A DNA stretch of 53,920 nt, counting the filler, from Circinaria calcarea (taxonomy: Eukaryota), in assembly GCA_051942165.1 (NCBI GenBank). It is 3 parts of 3 records of this genome, joined end to end, with 100 filler letters (N's around TTAATTAATTAA, not from the genome) between each part and the next. Parts side by side here need not be neighbours in the genome. Positions count along the whole stretch, not along the records: positions 1 to 17,918 come from JAVECS010000249.1; 2 more parts are not named here. The stretch is one strand, 5' to 3'. This document shows, piece by piece, positions 1 through 9,800 of this stretch. Positions within the stretch are counted from its first letter, which is position 1; each line of letters starts with the position of its first letter. A model generated the notes under the pieces. That model had not been told where the DNA came from. It did not search any database and saw only the letters and a program-made list of their open reading frames with translations. The position numbers were made by a program, and so were the translations under genes.

Positions 1-245
1 GGGGGGAATGGGGGGGTTTTCGTAAAGGTGGATAAAAAAAAAGGGGGAGATGGATGCCCCGGGTTATATCTCATCAATTGCTCGGTAAAAAACTCCTCGT
101 AGCGACAAACGGTTGAAATCAAAGCCATTACGAGTGTTTGAAGAAAAAGGTGCTTAGGTATTAAAGAAATCTCCATCGAATTTTGTCCTCTCCTACATTT
201 GCAAATCCGCCAACTCCATCCGGGCCCCTTTATCCATTGTACCCA

Positions 246-2651
246 TCACCCTTTAACTCCCTTCCCCCCCCCTCCCAAGAGAATTTCGTACTTGCCAGAC
301 CGATAAACACCGTCGGCAGCGACCACGTCGATTTGCTTCCCCATGAAAATCCATCGCGGCGTATCTCTGGGCACACGGATAATTGTACACTTTCTAATAT
401 TCACCATGTTGCCAAGTTTGTCCTTTATTATTTTCTCGGGCCGGTCAAGGTCTAGTCGGGGGAATATTTTAGATTCTGCGTAAGCTAGTGCGTAATCTTG
501 GTATGTGGCGAAAAGGATTATCATATCTTGGGACTGATCTGACACTAGTTCGTAGTTTCCAGTCTCCAGGATATCACTCAGGACATACTTGCCATTTTGC
601 TTCCAAGAGGAAAGACGCTTAGCATCGCTGGGTGCCCGAACAATCAGGATATTGCTTGTGTCGACAGCCGGGTTCCGCCGACTTACAGCAAGTAGCCGTT
701 CAGGGTTGGAGAACTCTTTGTTTATTTTGACAGCGTTTTGCTGATCTTGAATTGTGGCGAAGAAAATGCCGTGTGGTACTTCGGGTAGTAACTCCGTTAC
801 CTTTGGTGGTTTCCCAGATGGCTTGTCGACAATTTTCAATTGACCCGGCTTCACGACGTCAAGATGAATTATCTGTAGTATCTCGGACCCATCTGAATTT
901 GAGATCGCCTCTCGCCGACTTTTAGCAGACGCCCACACGAGGTTAATATCGTCAAGGTCTTCCTGTCCTTGATCTCGTGCATCGAGTACAGCTTGAGGTT
1001 TTCCAAATCGCTTGTCCTTAGCCGTGGCATTACTGTAATCACCAATTGTGAGAAAGAACGGAATCGCGTCCTCTACTCCGTCCTGTACGTCCACCGTCTT
1101 AGGTTCGCCTTCAACGGGGTCTGGCTCCGGTTGATATTGCCCAGTCCTCGCAATCTTATCTGCCACTATTGCGTCATCTCGGCTGGGCACAGCGGAGGAA
1201 CCCCGAGGCATTTCCGTAGCCCAGACCAGTTTGATATGGTCAGTGTGTTTCACACCCTTTCCCCTTGCAATAGCTAAAACTTTAGGATTGATGAAAGCCG
1301 AATGCCTACACTCTGCATTGTCTAAATCCGTGCGTGTCAGGAAAAGAGGTTTCCTTTCTATAGGTTCCTTTGGTGAAATAGTAATGGTGTCCTTTGGCAG
1401 TAAACCCGTCCCGCGATAAAAGTTTTCGGAATCTATTACACTTTTGGCCGTAATTGGACCCATTAATCGAGGGGCGTTCGGCCAGACATAAACAACATCA
1501 ACATCGTTTAAAGTACCAGGAATCTCACTTTGCTTAGCAATCACAGCTTCAGGATTGGCGTACGCCGTGTTTATTTCAGTTGCCCTAAAGTAGTCTCCGA
1601 GGGTGCGGAAAACAGGTACCTTCGTTTGGGGTTGATTTTCTGGGTATGTTGTCACTGGTACCTCTTCAAAGTGTCCAGACTCCAATACATTGTTTCCCGC
1701 AATATCATTCAGTTTATCGCCATAATGCCTATACCGCATGGTATTTTCAGGCACTCGAATAATTCTTATGCCGTTGAGGTACGGTGCCCCTGCTTTCCGT
1801 GTAGCGTCTATATCTTTAGGGCTTCTGTATGGGATCTCGTCTTTCTGAGCCAATATCGCATCTCTCTGCGTAGCGAAAAGGAGTACAGTTTCCTTTGATA
1901 ATGTTTGCCCGTCCTCTGTTTGGAGCGGTAAGGTTGGTGATGGTGGCGGCGGTGGACCAGGCAGCCAGTCCAAAACGTCCACAAAACTTTTGGACTCCAA
2001 CACATCACTCGCTGCAACCCGGTCATTCACTTGCCCGTCTTCGGCAGTATATCGTTTAGCATCTTCAAATACCTGGATGATTAGAATGTCATCCGTATCT
2101 GTCGAACCTTGAAATCTCGCCATAAGTACATTATTAGGCGTCCCATACAAACGGTTTCGAGAAGTAGCCAGGTTGAAATGTCGAATTGTGGCAAATAGAG
2201 CGATTTTCTCCACTCGCGGCTTGTCTTTTGGATATCCGGGCGTCAAATCTCGAAAGGTACCTGAATCTAGTACGCCCTCGGCCGCGACACTAGGGTGCCG
2301 GTGACCGCCTTCATCATATGACTTTGCAGGGTAGGAGACGCTGATAATCCTAATAGTACACGCAGTCGTATTGCCTCCCTTTTGCGCGCGTAGTACGTCT
2401 CCTGGCGTGATATGCTCCTTCTCAGGGTCTAGCGTCTTAGCTAATTCGTAATCACGCAACGTGGCGAAAAGAGTGATCCTCCCCACAACATCCTTTTCCC
2501 GCGGAGCGGTACTGGCTACACGAACAATGTCAATTCCGGCAACATTCTGCTGACGGTCCTCTGCGGCAAGTACAGCTGTCGGGCTGGTGTAAGTATCGTC
2601 TCGAACTAGAGCGAGAATTCGATCCTGATCTGTAGCGAAAAGAGGTATGAG
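246..2651 (-). repeat. Nine tandem, divergent protein repeats (~60-105 aa)
   Basis: The motif hhF[ALR]TxxD..A......P..V...I.hh.V...A.R...VAAxxVLxSGx[FY] recurs, with units starting near 2651, 2480, 2205, 1890, 1620, 1353, 1065, 773 and 524. Confidence 0.9.
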
Positions 2652-4245
2652 GTCCAGGTTTGGGTCTGGTTCTTCCGGTGCGTCTGGCATCCTTACATCG
2701 TCGGGTAGATCCTGGTCGTTCTGTGATCCAGACTGCTCTATCTGCCAACCATGGTATGCTTTCCTCTGTTGAAAGTGCATTGCTCCTAGTGCTGGAAACT
2801 CCATCATCTCTAAGAGGTCAAGGAAAGCCACCCCATCGTTCGGTCCCTCATAATAGTAGTAATCGCCTGTAGTTGGAGATCCTTTTTTAGCCATATAATC
2901 TGCTAATCGTAAGATTCCTATGCAAAATTGGACCCACCACTCAAGCGCTTTGTTGTCCAGAGTGCCTGCATATGGGAGGAACTCAAGCATATCCGAGGAT
3001 GGCTGTGATGGGGCGGAAGAAGGTGGGTCGTTCACGACGAAATTAGCCCAGTTGATGATCAATTCTTCGTGGTGGCTCATGAGTCTTGCGAGATCAGAGA
3101 TGGTTGTCTGAGCGAAAATAGCGTCAACAGATTGTTGGTAGGTGAAGTCACCCAGAACAGATTTATCAGGAGGAAGTTCCCATTGACCGTTTCCGTTACG
3201 TTTGAGCTGTTTTCTGTTGGGCCGATAACCATCTCCGTATATGACAGCAATGTAGGCAAGGTGCTTGAGAGTGTCAAGGTCGAAGCCTTCCGGTTTTTCT
3301 GCACCAACCTGAACCCGTAGGCGACAGCGTTCGGAAGTGACCGCAGCATGGAGATGGGCATCTCTACCTTTGATGGCATTTAGATAGGCATTGATCTCAG
3401 AGAACGAGTCAAGTTCCGAGTCTAACACTCTAGAGACGAGTACGATACCATGAGAGGTCCCTAATCGTGTTAGCTAGAGCTAGAAAAGTCAGAGCAAAAT
3501 CAGCTGACATTCATTAGCGTTTGGATAATCCTCATGCTTGATATCTACATCTCCTTTCGGATAAGGCCTGTTCCCGATATGGGCAGGGCCACCTTCAAAG
3601 TCCAGGGAGCGAGCCCCAGCAATGAGCTTTTCGCGATCGAGGAGACCTTGCAGGTCATGCTGGGCAAGACGCCCAAGTTCCTGGTCGCCATAAACATACC
3701 ACCTTTGGGAGGCCTCAGCGTCACGTCGAATTTTTTGGAGGTGAATATCGGCAGCCAGGCTTTGCTTTTCTGGCTGAACTGTGACTTGGTCGACCTGGTC
3801 AATATCCATTGCTTCAGCCTCTCGGGCCGGTGGGAAATAGTCATAGTTGAGGTTACGGGGATTGCCCCTCAAAACCTCCTGGGCGATGTACAATGGCTCC
3901 GTACCGGTTTCCCTTCACTCAAGCATTTCAGTTAGTCATATGAGTTCAATGCAAAAAGGAGCAGGCGCCAAGTGGTCCTCGGCTTCGAAACCAAGATTAC
4001 ATCGGCGCCAGCGTCTAACATAATCCTTCTTGCTTGGCCTGTGACGCTATAGGCGAAGAGAAAGTACGGCGCTTGTCCGTCAGAATCTTCCTCACGTACC
4101 TGTGTTCTCCAGTTTTCAGTCCTGTGTTTTCTGTTCCTTGTGTGCCTGGGTTCGGCTGCCTAACTTCGTCGAGGAGTGTATTATGGAACGCGAATATCAT
4201 GTCCAAGCTGAAGCTAAACTTCGGCTTGTAGTCTTCGTTGAGCAT
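246..4245 (-). CDS. Degenerate amidoligase-like (Amidoligase_2 / COOH-NH2 ligase fold) protein with nine C-terminal ~90-aa repeats; probably 3 exons
   Basis: ORFs 4015-4245, 3489-3893 and 246-3428 join into one gene. Intron 3461-3508 (GTCAGC...GCTAAC...TAG) restores EWTSHGIVLVSRVL. A first intron ends near 3912 (GACTAAC branch); its donor is uncertain. Family-like motifs occur in order: FSLDMIFAFH, EPLYIAQEVL, WYVYGDQEL, GIVLVSRVL, CRLRVQVG, LKHLA, INW, EFLPYAGTLD..WVQFC. The 3' end lies in low-complexity contig-end sequence. Confidence 0.75.
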
Positions 4246-5218: not shown

Positions 5219-8200
5219 CTATCCGTAAAGTTCCTCCTCATCATCCCCACCAGTATCTCCGAAGTCGCCATCGTCACCGTCACTCGAGGGCTCTCGCACC
5301 ACTGCTTTCCCCTTCCCCTTTCCCTTGGAGCTCCCATTCGTAAATACATCCCCGTCCCCATCATCGCCACTCTGATAGTCCCTCGCTATCGATTTTCCCT
5401 TTCCCTTAGCACTCACATTAGAGGATGCATACCTAGCTGGGGTACCGTAGTCGTTGCTGGTGACATACGCCTCGTCGTCATCATCGTCTTCCCCGTCCTC
5501 GTAGTCATGTTCGGAGCTCCAATTCGTAGCGATGGCCGTCCCCTTACCCTTGTTTATGGCTTTGGTATTGTATCGAGGTTTGGGTTTTGACCTAGAATAT
5601 ACCGCCTGTCCCGTACCGTTCACTTTGGGATATGGCAGATCTAACTGTGGAGGTAGGTTGCCGCCTGTACTGCTACTGTTCAAAGTTGGTCCTTCGAAGG
5701 CCTTACGGACTCGTTGGTAGTGTTCGAGTTCTTTGGCGCTATGCATGGTCAGTTTGATGAGTGATTGTGTCAAGTATCCTCGTTAGTCTTACCTGACACT
5801 GCCAATGAGTTCTTGTTGAGCAGCATAGAAGTCTTCTTCGGTGACCACAACGGCGATGTCCTCCTTGATAGCATAATGGTCAAAGAAATACGCAGCGGTG
5901 ACAGGTACAGGCATTGCCTTGATCTTTGCATCAACAGCAGATGCTTGTCGAGTGATAGCTTTGAGCATCGCATCCGAACACAGAGCATACAGATCGGCAC
6001 CGGTATAAGTAAAAGGGAGGGACTCGGCCACAAGGCGAAGCGATAGCTTTGGGTGAAGGGTGAATTTCCGTGTCAAAGCCTCCAAAATGGTAAGTTGCTT
6101 GTCATGAGTATCAGATACACCAAGGTAAAGCATCTTGTCAAATCTGCCAGGTCGAAGGAGCGCTTGATCAAGCAGATCAGGCCGATTTGTGGCACCGATA
6201 ACGAAGACGCCTCCTCCAGCTTCGTCACCATTGCTCATACCATCCAACTCTGCAAGAAGCTGACTGACGATACGATCCATAACGCCACCACTATCACCTT
6301 GGTTTCCTCGCTTTGGCGCGACGGAATCGAGTTCGTCGAAGAAGACAACGCAAGGTCTAGCATCTCTGGCTCGCTGGAACACACGACGTACATTAGCTTC
6401 AGACTCGCCTATGTACATGTTGAGTAGCTCCGGTCCTTTGACGGAGAAGAAGTTAAGAGAGAATTCCGTAGCAATCGCCTTTGCTAGTAGTGTTTTGCCA
6501 GTACCCGGTGGACCGTAGAATAAAATCCCGCTTCGTTTCTTCATGCCTTTGGCGAATAGTTCGGGCCGCTCTAGAGGCAGTTGTATTGTTTCCATCACGG
6601 CATCCTTGACATTCGTCAAACCTCCAACGTCGTCCCAGCTAACGTTGGGGATTTTCGGAGCGCCGATAGCATCTGCGAAATTCTTACGGGCGGCCTCGAC
6701 GGCAAGGTCAAAGTCAGCTTTCGTGACAGTACATGTCGCTCCCCCGGAAACCAACAGGTCCCTTAACAAAAGAGCACCCGAATGCTCAGCGTTTTTCGAG
6801 TTCTCGGATCCCAAAGCCTCTAGACGTTCCTGTCGCGCGATACGAGCTCGCTCGACAACATCGACCAAGTCACCAGCAACAAATGCTGCAGTCTTGACCG
6901 CTATAGCTGAAAGATCAACATCAAAAGCTAATCTTACCCCTTGAGCTTGGATGACCTCCTCTAAAATTCCTTCTCTCTCGCCTTCATCAGGAGCTGAAAC
7001 CTCTAATTCATGAGTGAACAGACTGCGAATGTCTTCGGGGACCTTGTCGATATCTGTTGTCGTCATAATTATAGCTTTGACATCCTCTACAACATCTTTG
7101 AGCACCGAACCCATTCGGTCGGCCGTCAGTGCCTCCAAGTGTCGGATTAGGGGCACGGTAAACTCTGGTCCACAACTCATTACCCGATCAACTTTGGCTT
7201 TGAGAGAAGCTTCTGTCTTGACATCTCCTCCCCCTGCACCACCTTCTGTAAGTATATCATATGCGTCGATAGGGAATACGTGAAGGCCAAGATCGGCGCA
7301 TGCACGTGAGGCTAAGTGGGCTTTACCAATACGTCGCTGAGTTGAGTGAAGCAGGATAACAATTGGCTTCAAATCCAAATGAAGTGTACCAGCGGCTGTA
7401 GCTGCTGCTAGAAGCTCACGTATTCGGCGTCGAAGAGGCGTGATGTGTAACCTATCAATACTTGCTGAATGATGCACGGCAGGGTTGGTAAGGATAGATA
7501 ACCTAGGGGGACGTCGAAGACCAAGGTAGTACTCCCAAGGATTTCCTATGGATGAGGGTACCTTAGACTGTTCCGTTCCGACTTGCACCATACGTGTGGT
7601 TTTCGGCTCGATAGACGCAACACCCCAAGTATCTGTTTCTTTCGGACGGTTTTCATCATCGGATGACCTCGTAACTTGTCCAACCTTAAACCAGGCTACC
7701 CCGGTCTTTCCCTCTTCTAATTGATTGCCCATGGTTGGACTTATCAAGAGCTCCTCAATCTCATCTGCTACCTCGGAACTACCTTCGGAAAGGATCTTAC
7801 TAACATCAATATCCATACTAATACTGACAAGGTCACCCTTTCGGAGTATGCGACGTCTTCGCTCAAAGTGTCGCTTAAGGCTTGCCAGTATGCCTGGCTG
7901 CATGGCCTTTTCAGTAGACAGCGGCGTTGCAAGCCTCAGCAACGTAATTTCTTTCGCTATCGGCGGACCTAGCACACTATCAATCTTCGATTTCACTGGC
8001 ATTTTGGCGTCTTGCGATTCTATCAAAAGTGGCATGAGCCTCACGGTCGACGGATTTCCAAGGTTTGCCAGTAAAATTGGTGAAAAGTAAGCCTCTGGAA
8101 GTGGTCTTCGGGTTGAGAGGGCTGTGCTAGATCTTCTCATCGTAGCTTTTCTCTGCGGGTTGTCAGGATTGTTCTTAGGTGTTAGGTCTGCCAAGCTATA

Positions 8201-9700
8201 TAGTTTAACGGCTCTGAATTCATCAGCTTCCACGCCGTTATCCTCGAATGGCTTAGCACCCCAGTAACCATCATTGCTCCTTCTTGAGTTCTGCGAGGCA
8301 TAGACTTTAACCCAATCGCCAGAAAAGCACCCTAACCTGGATAGCATTGTAACGTCTATGAAAACTCTTGCTTCTTCATCTTCATCACTTTTTGGTTGTG
8401 GAAATAAGACACTATCTGGCACTGATCTGAGCAGAGCCTTGGCCTGAAAGGGCTTGGCAGGAGCTTTTCTATCATTTCGTAGTGTCGTACTTGTGAAGTT
8501 CGAGTAGACAGAGCCAGGGGTGTTAGCTCCGCTGTTTCGGCCAAATACCATTCGAGGAGTAGCAGAGGTAACCGTTGTTGTCGCTCCTGGGCCTGATAAC
8601 GGCAGACTGGGAGGGCTCAATGTAATTAGGTTATCGGACAAGTCATCGGAGAGACTACTGTTCTCTGTGTCAGAACACTCGGAGTCTGAGCTGGAATACT
8701 TTTTGAGATTTTGCCTCTGCATTTTAGTCTGCGGGGGGTCGCCATTCTCCAAGGAAGAGGAAAACTGCTCAGCAGAGGTATCCTCGGCCTCTTCCGTAGG
8801 GATTCCGGGAGACGGTGATCCCTTTGGGAGCGACGTACCGTATTTCATAGTCTCCCCATTAGAGACTACGTCGATCAAGATTCTCGTCGTCGAACTCACG
8901 AACCCTTGATTGACAGGCTCACACATGGTGACTCTGACAGGGAGGAAAGCGACATGCGTGATTGGATGAGCAGGTAGGGGAAGTGGCAGTAGGTCACCTT
9001 GATGGATAATTCTCATAGAGGCTATGGATCTTCGAATAGCAGCTCTTAGACGATTTTGTTGATCCTGGCTTAATGACACCTCTTTCTCATAATCTGTCCC
9101 ACTACTCTCATTACTCGGCTTTCCGTTGACCTTCCCTTTACCTTTCCCAACTGACCCATGTGATTGGAAGCCACCGCCAAATCGCCTTTGAATCTCCTCA
9201 TGTTTTTGGAGAGCGTTTCCGTCAACTCTGACGACGATACGGTCCAAGGTTACAGGCTGTGTGTCCAAGACCAGGATTTTAAAGCCAAGTTTGGCTACGG
9301 CAAAGCCACCTCTTTGCTGGGAGTTCTTGATAAATCCCTGAATGGACAAAGATGAAGGCGGAAAACGTATCGAAGGAGCGGTTGAGGCCTTGGCCGGTCC
9401 ACTTGGAGTATCCTCGGACTTGACTGGTATTACCACCCAAGACGCATCTTCCAGCAAGTGCGGAGAATGGGGCCTCCAAGGAGTTATGGCAACGTGTTTG
9501 GCCTGTCCGTCGGTACAGCCATGCTGAAAGTGAGCAACGGAGCAACCAAAGAGCTCCGCAAAAAGTTCTGCCGATACAAGCCCAACGTCGCCCTCGCCAT
9601 GATTCTCTAGGATCAACTTAGCAGATAGGGGTGCTCTATCCGTCCTTCTCCGCCGCCGCCGTTTCTTACGGTGCTCCAAAGTCACGTTCGTGTCTTCCAT
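5219..9700 (-). CDS. PEX6: Peroxisomal biogenesis AAA ATPase Pex6 (~1475 aa, 2 exons)
   Basis: Degenerate D1 (HSTQRRIGKA) and intact D2 (GPPGTGKT, FFDELD, ATNRPDLLD..LRPGRFD); IGAPKIPNVSWDDVGG is typical of Pex6. Intron 5739-5792 (GTAAGA...CTGAC...TAG) joins ELIGSVS to AKELEHYQRVR, so ORF 5219-5773 is the last exon. Confidence 0.95.
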
Positions 9701-9800
9701 TAGTATTACCTTTTACTTGAAGATGGTTCAGCACAAGCTCATGAATTCGAATGGTCGTCAACTGCCTCCATACTTTATACCTCGATCCTGCTAATAAATG

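Follow-up and report, generated by a model that had tools for sequence, protein, structure and literature searches.

Which kind of protein is encoded by a gene that joins a ligase-like domain to a long array of repeats? This question is raised by positions 246-4245 of a 53,920-nucleotide (nt) stretch of DNA (hereafter, the window) from the lichen-forming ascomycete Circinaria calcarea (GenBank assembly GCA_051942165.1), the one genome on which our analysis is based. A minus-strand gene spans this region, from an ATG at 4245-4243 to a TGA at 248-246. With a little more conviction than doubt, we read its product as an intracellular protein in which an Amidoligase_2-type pseudo-ligase is joined to nine orphan alpha/beta modules. 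We are highly confident of the anatomy of the gene, that is, of its two-part architecture; the functional part of this reading is tentative, and we would give it somewhat less than an even chance.

We investigated the gene model of this locus. An open reading frame (ORF) at 3473..246 (-) is uninterrupted for 1,075 codons and ends with the TGA stop codon (246..248, -); a run of stop-free codons this long has a probability of ~3e-24 given the local base composition. This ORF contains the C-terminal ~250 amino acids (aa) of the ligase-like domain together with the entire repeat array, and both parts are therefore co-linear within a single exon. The start codon (4243..4245, -) is the first Met past an in-frame stop. 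Many homologues begin with ‘MLN.DY..F’, and their residue 1 aligns at this ATG. Exon 1 (4046..4245, -), where the ligase domain has its first beta-strand motif, is certain from 4245 to 4100 and perhaps runs through to 4046; in tblastn, residues 1-67 of two Xylographa homologues (P0003 and P0004) align to 4245-4066. It is followed by a zone of one or two introns with alternative splicings (3897..4099, -), where our enumeration over 4100-3896 gave 79 stop-free models with protein lengths of 1,220-1,272 aa. In the upstream part of this zone, a canonical 53-nt intron (4099-4047, GTACGT..TAG) is equally stop-free as a read-through to 4046 followed by a 133-nt intron, and the weak alignment of P0003 and P0004 favours the latter. 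The middle exon of the ligase-like domain (3509..3913, -; from ‘EPLYIAQEVL’ to ‘PNANE’) is placed by the alignment of a Schaereria homologue (P0009), whose residues 116-467 align from 3899 onward (E 8e-31). A 48-nt intron then follows (3461..3508, -), with a non-consensus GTCAGC donor, a branch-like CTAAC and a TAG acceptor. Its removal joins T|GG as a Trp codon and yields ‘NANEWTSHGIVLVS’, which corresponds to ‘AENWDSHGIELVS’ of P0009 and to W-D-S-x-G in other homologues. This intron is supported because the junction conserved in the homologues (W-x-S-x-G-[IV]-E-L-V-S) is recreated. A candidate upstream intron would likewise have an unusual donor, GTCACA (4045), and the donor usage in this genome or gene may be relaxed.

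An earlier note on this DNA had described a spliced gene of ~1,280 aa. The splicing stands, and the length is slightly high in view of the 79 models. That the two parts might not be co-translated, a doubt raised in the same note, is left with almost no room on the DNA reading, as one ORF holds both. The product is presumably cytosolic. Its maximum Kyte-Doolittle mean over 19 residues is 1.22, with no transmembrane segment, and its N-terminus is acidic and polar, unlike a signal peptide; these hydropathy heuristics agree with the note, which saw no evident signal peptide or transmembrane segment.

We then investigated the N-terminal part. Judging from the sequence, the N-terminal ~460 aa belong to the fungal branch of the Amidoligase_2 (PF12224) group, whose fold is that of carboxylate-amine ligases such as glutamine synthetase, and they keep the hydrophobic and glycine scaffold of that fold. 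A phmmer search of 1.84 billion representative proteins returned 74 homologues at E<=1e-3, including 23 at E<=1e-10 (best 8.6e-23), and every one of their listed best stretches lies inside ORF residues 2-286. PF12224 is present in 19 of the 21 homologues scanned (E 3.4e-7 to 1.9e-14). The closest named homologues come from the lichen fungi Xylographa, Bachmanniomyces, Ptychographa and Schaereria, and all are listed as hypothetical proteins. The proteins of Xylographa opegraphella and Xylographa trunciseda (P0003, P0004) and Schaereria dolodes (P0009), all from lichen-forming Lecanoromycetes, share the N-terminus and the order of conserved blocks with the window gene, at 28-38% identity over ~240-350 aa (E down to 8.6e-23). 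The family is fast-evolving in these fungi by the identities we obtained: 68% between two Xylographa species, compared with 75% for PEX6, and 38% between the Xylographa and Schaereria members in the C-terminal half. Searches of NCBIfam with the exon translations (E 0.013 and 0.04, nowhere near the cut-offs) and of PDB sequences (Hsp70, E 0.07) gave noise alone.

The pseudo-ligase domain has its C-terminal part at ORF residues ~5-250 (2724..3460, -), as delimited by phmmer, an AlphaFold2 model and fold matches. The model, which covers the part of the domain within ORF residues 1-272 and is based on an alignment of 37 homologues, has a predicted local distance difference test score (pLDDT) of 78.6 and a predicted template modelling score (pTM) of 0.78. 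In the fold comparison, the top 17 VIA rows all belong to the fold of glutamine synthetase, glutamate-cysteine ligase (GCL), YbdK, PafA and Dop, with Z <8. Foldseek by itself returned no match at E<=1e-3 for the domain model, the best being a glutamine synthetase at E 1.7. The test for a glutamine-synthetase-like catalytic fold in the N-domain came out positive, and the model supports a predicted peptide-ligase fold of the glutamine-synthetase/GCL type.

In this superfamily, the conserved Glu, His and Arg residues hold metal ions and ATP phosphates; the paper defining these amidoligases is reportedly that of Iyer et al. in 2009. We aligned the 74 homologues to the window gene and counted the residues in each column. 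At ten conserved Glu/His/Arg columns, the window gene differs at nine. In exon 1, these are S13 (Glu in 43/49 homologues), D15 (Glu in 45/49) and N22 (Glu in 39/50), and in the ORF, they are V11 (Glu in 49/53), R53 (His in 67/69), Q55 (His in 68/70), G80 (Glu in 57/63), L166 (Arg in 71/72) and Y168 (His in 58/72). The sole survivor is E164, a Glu in 72/72 homologues. Sixty homologues have at least seven of these columns aligned; 51 of them differ at no more than one column (33 at none and 18 at one), and of the others, six differ at two, one at four and two at five. Thus the window gene, with nine of ten columns changed against at most five elsewhere, is the most degenerate among the homologues compared.

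Four conserved motifs are degenerate. Amidoligase_2 homologues keep G-x-E-x-E, G-[IV]-E-L-V-S, C-G-L-H-V-H and E-F-R-Q-H-E, whereas the window gene has S-F-S-L-D, G-I-V-L-V-S, C-R-L-R-V-Q and E-F-L-P-Y-A. The first metal-binding strand (F-G-V-E-L-E in homologues) has become ‘FSFSLD’ (4201..4218, -), through Gly (42/48) to Ser, Glu (43/49) to Ser and Glu (45/49) to Asp. In ‘GIVLVS’ (3432..3449, -), the conserved Glu (49/53) is replaced by Val, and in ‘CRLRVQVG’ (3303..3326, -), the changes are Gly (61/69) to Arg, His (67/69) to Arg and His (68/70) to Gln. The fourth motif, ‘LEFLPYAG’ (2964..2987, -), is a degenerate I-E-F-R-Q-H-E-G in which the Glu found in 72/72 homologues is retained, with Arg (71/72) to Leu, Gln (64/72) to Pro, His (58/72) to Tyr and Glu (41/72) to Ala. 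In addition, the conserved segment H-Y..P.Y..W-G, which follows the first strand in homologues, is encoded in no frame of 4100-3896 and appears to be deleted. The structural columns are retained, namely W180 (72/72), F165 (70/72), C50 (62/70) and S14 (51/55), as well as G9, V54, F64, L66, L72, A73, F183 and A191; the middle exon retains W72 (30/31) and D77 (22/32). A fold kept with its chemistry lost is the pattern of a pseudo-enzyme, and since nearly all of the conserved Glu, His and Arg residues are gone, the N-domain is very probably unable to perform ATP-dependent amide-bond formation. The single gene with a ligase fold of this type and without the canonical catalytic residues is as the earlier note had read it. 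Four homologues (P0057, P0031, P0060 and P0069) have lost two to five of the ten key columns, with G-A-V-L-V-S in P0057, so that loss of catalysis may recur in the fungal family.

Downstream of the domain, an acidic Pro-rich linker (ORF residues 251-272; 2658..2723, -; pLDDT 52-60 in the model) leads into the array, which was also foreseen as a diversified one. Nine units, delimited by a nine-row alignment and a hidden Markov model (HMM) of the units, occupy ORF residues 273-1075. All are on the minus strand. When each unit was scored with a profile built without it, it reached 32-66 bits, whereas its shuffled versions (200 per unit) never exceeded 5.9 bits. Repeat 1 (2487..2657, 57 aa, 39.4 bits in this leave-one-out test; HMM domain E 2.6e-16) is a half unit without the C-terminal hairpin part. 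It is followed by repeat 2 (2214..2486, 91 aa, 44.3 bits), repeat 3 (1896..2213, 106 aa including a poly-Pro linker, 65.6 bits), repeat 4 (1629..1895, 89 aa, 55.5 bits), repeat 5 (1362..1628, 89 aa, 32.2 bits), repeat 6 (1074..1361, 96 aa, 35.8 bits), repeat 7 (780..1073, 98 aa, 56.1 bits), repeat 8 (531..779, 83 aa, 53.9 bits) and repeat 9 (249..530, 94 aa, 41.7 bits), which is the end of the protein. Common to the units is the pattern [LI]-F-[AL]-T-x-x-D ... A ... P-x-x-V-L-x-A ... I-x-I-[IV]-R-V ... V-x-A-x-D-V-L-E-S-G-x-[FY]-E, with F7, T9, A16 and P26 invariant in all nine. Their pairwise identity is 16-39% (median 26%), and no repeat was found in the array at the DNA level by self-blastn or Tandem Repeats Finder (0 rows).

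An AlphaFold2 model of unit 4, based on the nine-row alignment, has a pLDDT of 84.8 and a pTM of 0.76. Its order is beta-alpha-alpha-beta-beta-beta-alpha, with a strand at 3-7, helices at 10-17 and 26-34, strands at 45-49, 54-57 and 60-66, and a helix at 68-73. A confident fold of a repeat unit needs long-term selection on folding. The modules are alpha/beta, beta-alpha-alpha-beta-beta-beta-alpha(-beta) in order, ~65-75 residues long and spaced by Pro-rich linkers of 10-25 residues, which suggests independent beads arranged on a string. This order had brought to mind a LysM-like or KH-like topology, which we dropped for want of Pfam or fold support.

No family in Pfam or NCBIfam is matched by the repeat unit; searching each of the nine units in Pfam at E<=10 gave one noise row in one unit (DUF2120, E 0.2). 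Neither a single sequence nor a profile of the repeat matched any PDB sequence (0 matches). With the unit model, the best E was 2.4 in Foldseek against PDB and 0.64 among the BFVD viral folds, and residues 527-704 and 421-510 gave no usable match in the ESM Atlas. The exhaustive phmmer search contains no matched stretch past ORF residue 286, and word-indexed homologue searches returned none for the ORF at near lengths and none for the repeat profile at longer lengths. The ORF was also scanned against Joint Genome Institute metagenome loci, where none of 78 pattern stretches was confirmed by tblastn. Six-frame translation of the window outside the gene revealed no further repeat copy. Absence of a match is no proof of a new fold. 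The repeat is also absent from the homologues of the ligase-like domain (200 fetched proteins, best hmmsearch E 3.3). In 54 homologues, the match extends to the end of the domain; their C-terminal tails have a median length of 44 aa and are at least 200 aa in 12 of them, and the long tails that we read are low-complexity. The tail of P0025 has three tandem acidic repeats of ~45 aa (‘D-[DE]-IPLP.P.I.P.TGEPVGG.F’), unrelated to the window repeat. Another family member, P0053 (1,166 aa), ends in a globular-looking region of ~150 aa with a Cys/His pattern and no Pfam match at E<=0.01, and thus other members of this family also carry unexplained C-terminal additions.

As a calibration, we searched a collection of 15 billion proteins with the neighbouring PEX6 ORF, for which it contains a 100%-identical entry whose label gives a metagenome-assembled protein of Circinaria calcarea. 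Other PEX6 relatives in the collection, on contigs of 5-25 kb, are 95, 89, 88, 83 and 82% identical. The collection thus holds close relatives of the neighbour and none with an array-like protein, which fits the accessory character that the earlier note had seen in this gene. By these searches, the gene appears to be accessory and lineage-restricted.

How might such a protein work? The cleft of the dead ligase would bind a peptide tail or a ligand with a carboxylate or amine group, and the nine modules would provide multivalent, non-enzymatic binding or scaffolding. We infer this binding or scaffold role, and any partner, from the architecture. By analogy, the earlier note had proposed that the array may give multivalent recognition and that the pseudo-ligase may bind a ligand or regulate active amidoligase paralogues. 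There is a precedent in a glutamine-synthetase-fold protein retained as a non-catalytic structural or binding protein. The likeness is conceptual only, since that precedent belongs to another branch of the superfamily and a different kingdom, forms dodecamers and has no repeat array. Compared with the YbdK/GCS2 carboxylate-amine ligase, GCL, glutamine synthetase, the Pup ligase PafA and the depupylase Dop, the window gene has neither a sequence match to a PDB chain nor the catalytic residues, and none of those proteins has such a repeat array. A bolder version, which we regard as rather unlikely, is that the ~70-residue module is a new domain, possibly with a new fold, which was amplified to nine copies on a pseudo-enzyme ligase in a narrow lichen-fungus lineage to give a multivalent binding protein. 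If this were true, the gene would encode a lineage-specific multivalent binder, perhaps of a ligand or partner that matters in the lichen lifestyle, and would be one of the rare cases in which recent domain birth and array expansion, joined to an ancient fold, can be traced. The repeat unit would be a candidate new domain family of the lichen-fungus lineage, provided that it has no relative in AlphaFold DB and fungal assemblies. The gene, alone among the homologues compared in carrying a folded repeat array, could reveal a use of the non-catalytic scaffold of the ligase fold, and what we have found is a starting point for structural and comparative studies, not a described system. Fungal Amidoligase_2 proteins are numerous and uncharacterised; ‘putative amidoligase’ genes of fungi are mentioned in passing in the parts of the literature that we found (PMC3158057, PMC8982410).

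Several observations weigh against the reading as a pseudo-ligase with binding modules. The three exon translations match no Pfam family at E<=0.1, PF12224 included; for that family, whose gathering score is 22 bits, no row appeared even at E<=1 in hmmscan of the exon fragments (rather than the spliced protein). The PF12224 assignment is hence transitive, through the homologues and the fold, and a search of PDB sequences with the family profile gave 0 matches. E164, H21 (41/48) and H71 survive, which may leave some contact with a ligand or a metal. The model of the repeat is based on an alignment of nine paralogous rows only. No orthologue of the array was found in any collection searched, and there is accordingly no between-species conservation to prove selection. 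The 15-billion-protein collection holds no protein at least 50% identical to the ORF, not even a self-match; the gene may never have been called and may be absent from public annotation.

Some of these points could suit a decaying or never-functional relic, in which an amidoligase paralogue has lost its function and the 3′ part is fast-evolving filler or a young leftover ORF. The catalytic residues and one conserved segment are gone, the protein collections contain neither an orthologue nor a self-match, and the family evolves fast, as the Xylographa pair indicates (68% against 75% for PEX6). The relative synonymous codon usage of the gene also correlates less well with the housekeeping pool (0.32-0.37) than that of the comparators does (0.49-0.76), although the comparators themselves belong to the pool. 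However, a relic is hard to reconcile with 1,075 stop-free codons (chance ~3e-24), or with a pattern of loss that spares the structural columns of the ligase fold and removes the polar ones. The nine repeats have a common core pattern despite their 16-39% identity, the repeat unit folds confidently (pLDDT 84.8), and removal of the intron still yields the conserved Trp codon at the junction. We therefore consider a relic improbable.

Alternatively, the N-domain might still be enzymatic, its chemistry altered or its active site re-wired; it could be a hydrolase, a deamidase or a ligase using other residues, and the repeats would then target it to substrates. The intact fold with its many structural columns, the retention of E164 (72/72), H21 (41/48) and H71, and the presence of the depupylase Dop, a non-ligase of this superfamily, among the fold matches would all be consistent with such activity. 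Dop, though, keeps the catalytic set of the family, while in the window gene, nine of the ten Glu/His/Arg columns hold other residues, most of them non-polar or non-equivalent (V, G, L, P, Y), and the region 4100-3896 lacks the conserved segment of the homologues. An altered enzyme is thus quite improbable.

The earlier note had drawn an analogy with fungal effector-plus-repeat proteins of non-self recognition. The gene would then encode an NLR-like or other recognition protein with an N-terminal ‘effector’ and a hypervariable recognition array. Fungal NLR/STAND proteins (an N-terminal effector, NACHT/NB-ARC, and WD40, ANK or TPR repeats) do share with it a gross layout, in which an enzyme-like N-terminal domain precedes C-terminal repeats, as well as an accessory distribution and apparent lineage specificity. 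The analogy fails on the details. In Pfam searches of the exon translations at E<=0.1, there is no NACHT, NB-ARC or other nucleotide-switch domain, and no room is left for an NTPase module between the end of the ligase domain (about ORF residue 250) and the start of repeat 1 (273). The repeats are not WD40, ANK or TPR according to Pfam. The repeats of fungal NLRs often have very high internal identity, but those of the window gene are highly diverged (16-39%), with neither a DNA-level repeat nor high internal conservation, and the locus sits among housekeeping genes. A recognition protein of this kind is highly improbable here. Least credible of all is an assembly chimera, in which fungal DNA would have been joined to the sequence of another lichen partner in a metagenome-assembled contig: the neighbouring PEX6 does match a protein labelled from a metagenome-assembled genome, and the array has no relatives in the collections searched, but the junction of domain and array lies inside one ORF without a break in guanine-cytosine (GC) content (0.485 in both halves), the gene has short fungal-type introns, and the closest relatives of the N-domain are lichen fungi.

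We also investigated the surroundings of the gene encoding this putative pseudo-ligase. The GC content of its neighbours (0.49-0.51) is close to its own, and over positions 1-3500, it stays at 0.47-0.49 with no composition break. The window starts 245 nt past the stop codon, and its positions 1-60 consist of runs of G, T and A (GGGGGGAATGGGGGGTTTT...AAAAAAAAAGGGGG), without a telomere repeat. On the other side lies PEX6, as the earlier note had it; its ORF (5789..9712, -) has AAA and PEX6-type domains in Pfam. Other genes in the window encode a lipase, an amino-acid permease, carbamoyl-phosphate synthase, a PPR protein, ORC3, an MFS transporter, Nop14, LETM1, adenylate kinase and a DEAD-box helicase. 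All of these neighbours are housekeeping genes, and neither a biosynthetic nor a defence cluster is found among the genes of the window; we therefore dropped the idea of a biosynthetic-cluster context. In Xylographa trunciseda, the homologue P0004 (MCJ1397409.1) is four accessions away from PEX6 (P0160, MCJ1397405.1), both on contigs of length 240,402. This accession numbering suggests a loose synteny of the amidoligase-like family with PEX6, in which the ancestral state may have been an intact amidoligase-like gene close to PEX6. Just downstream of the PEX6 ORF in the window, at 5219-5782 (-), there is a low-complexity ORF of 187 aa, rich in Gly, Lys and Asp (‘GKGKGK’ and runs of D), with no Pfam match. 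Because the public PEX6 entry has 1,475 aa and the PEX6 ORF 1,307, this small ORF is probably the C-terminal exon of PEX6.

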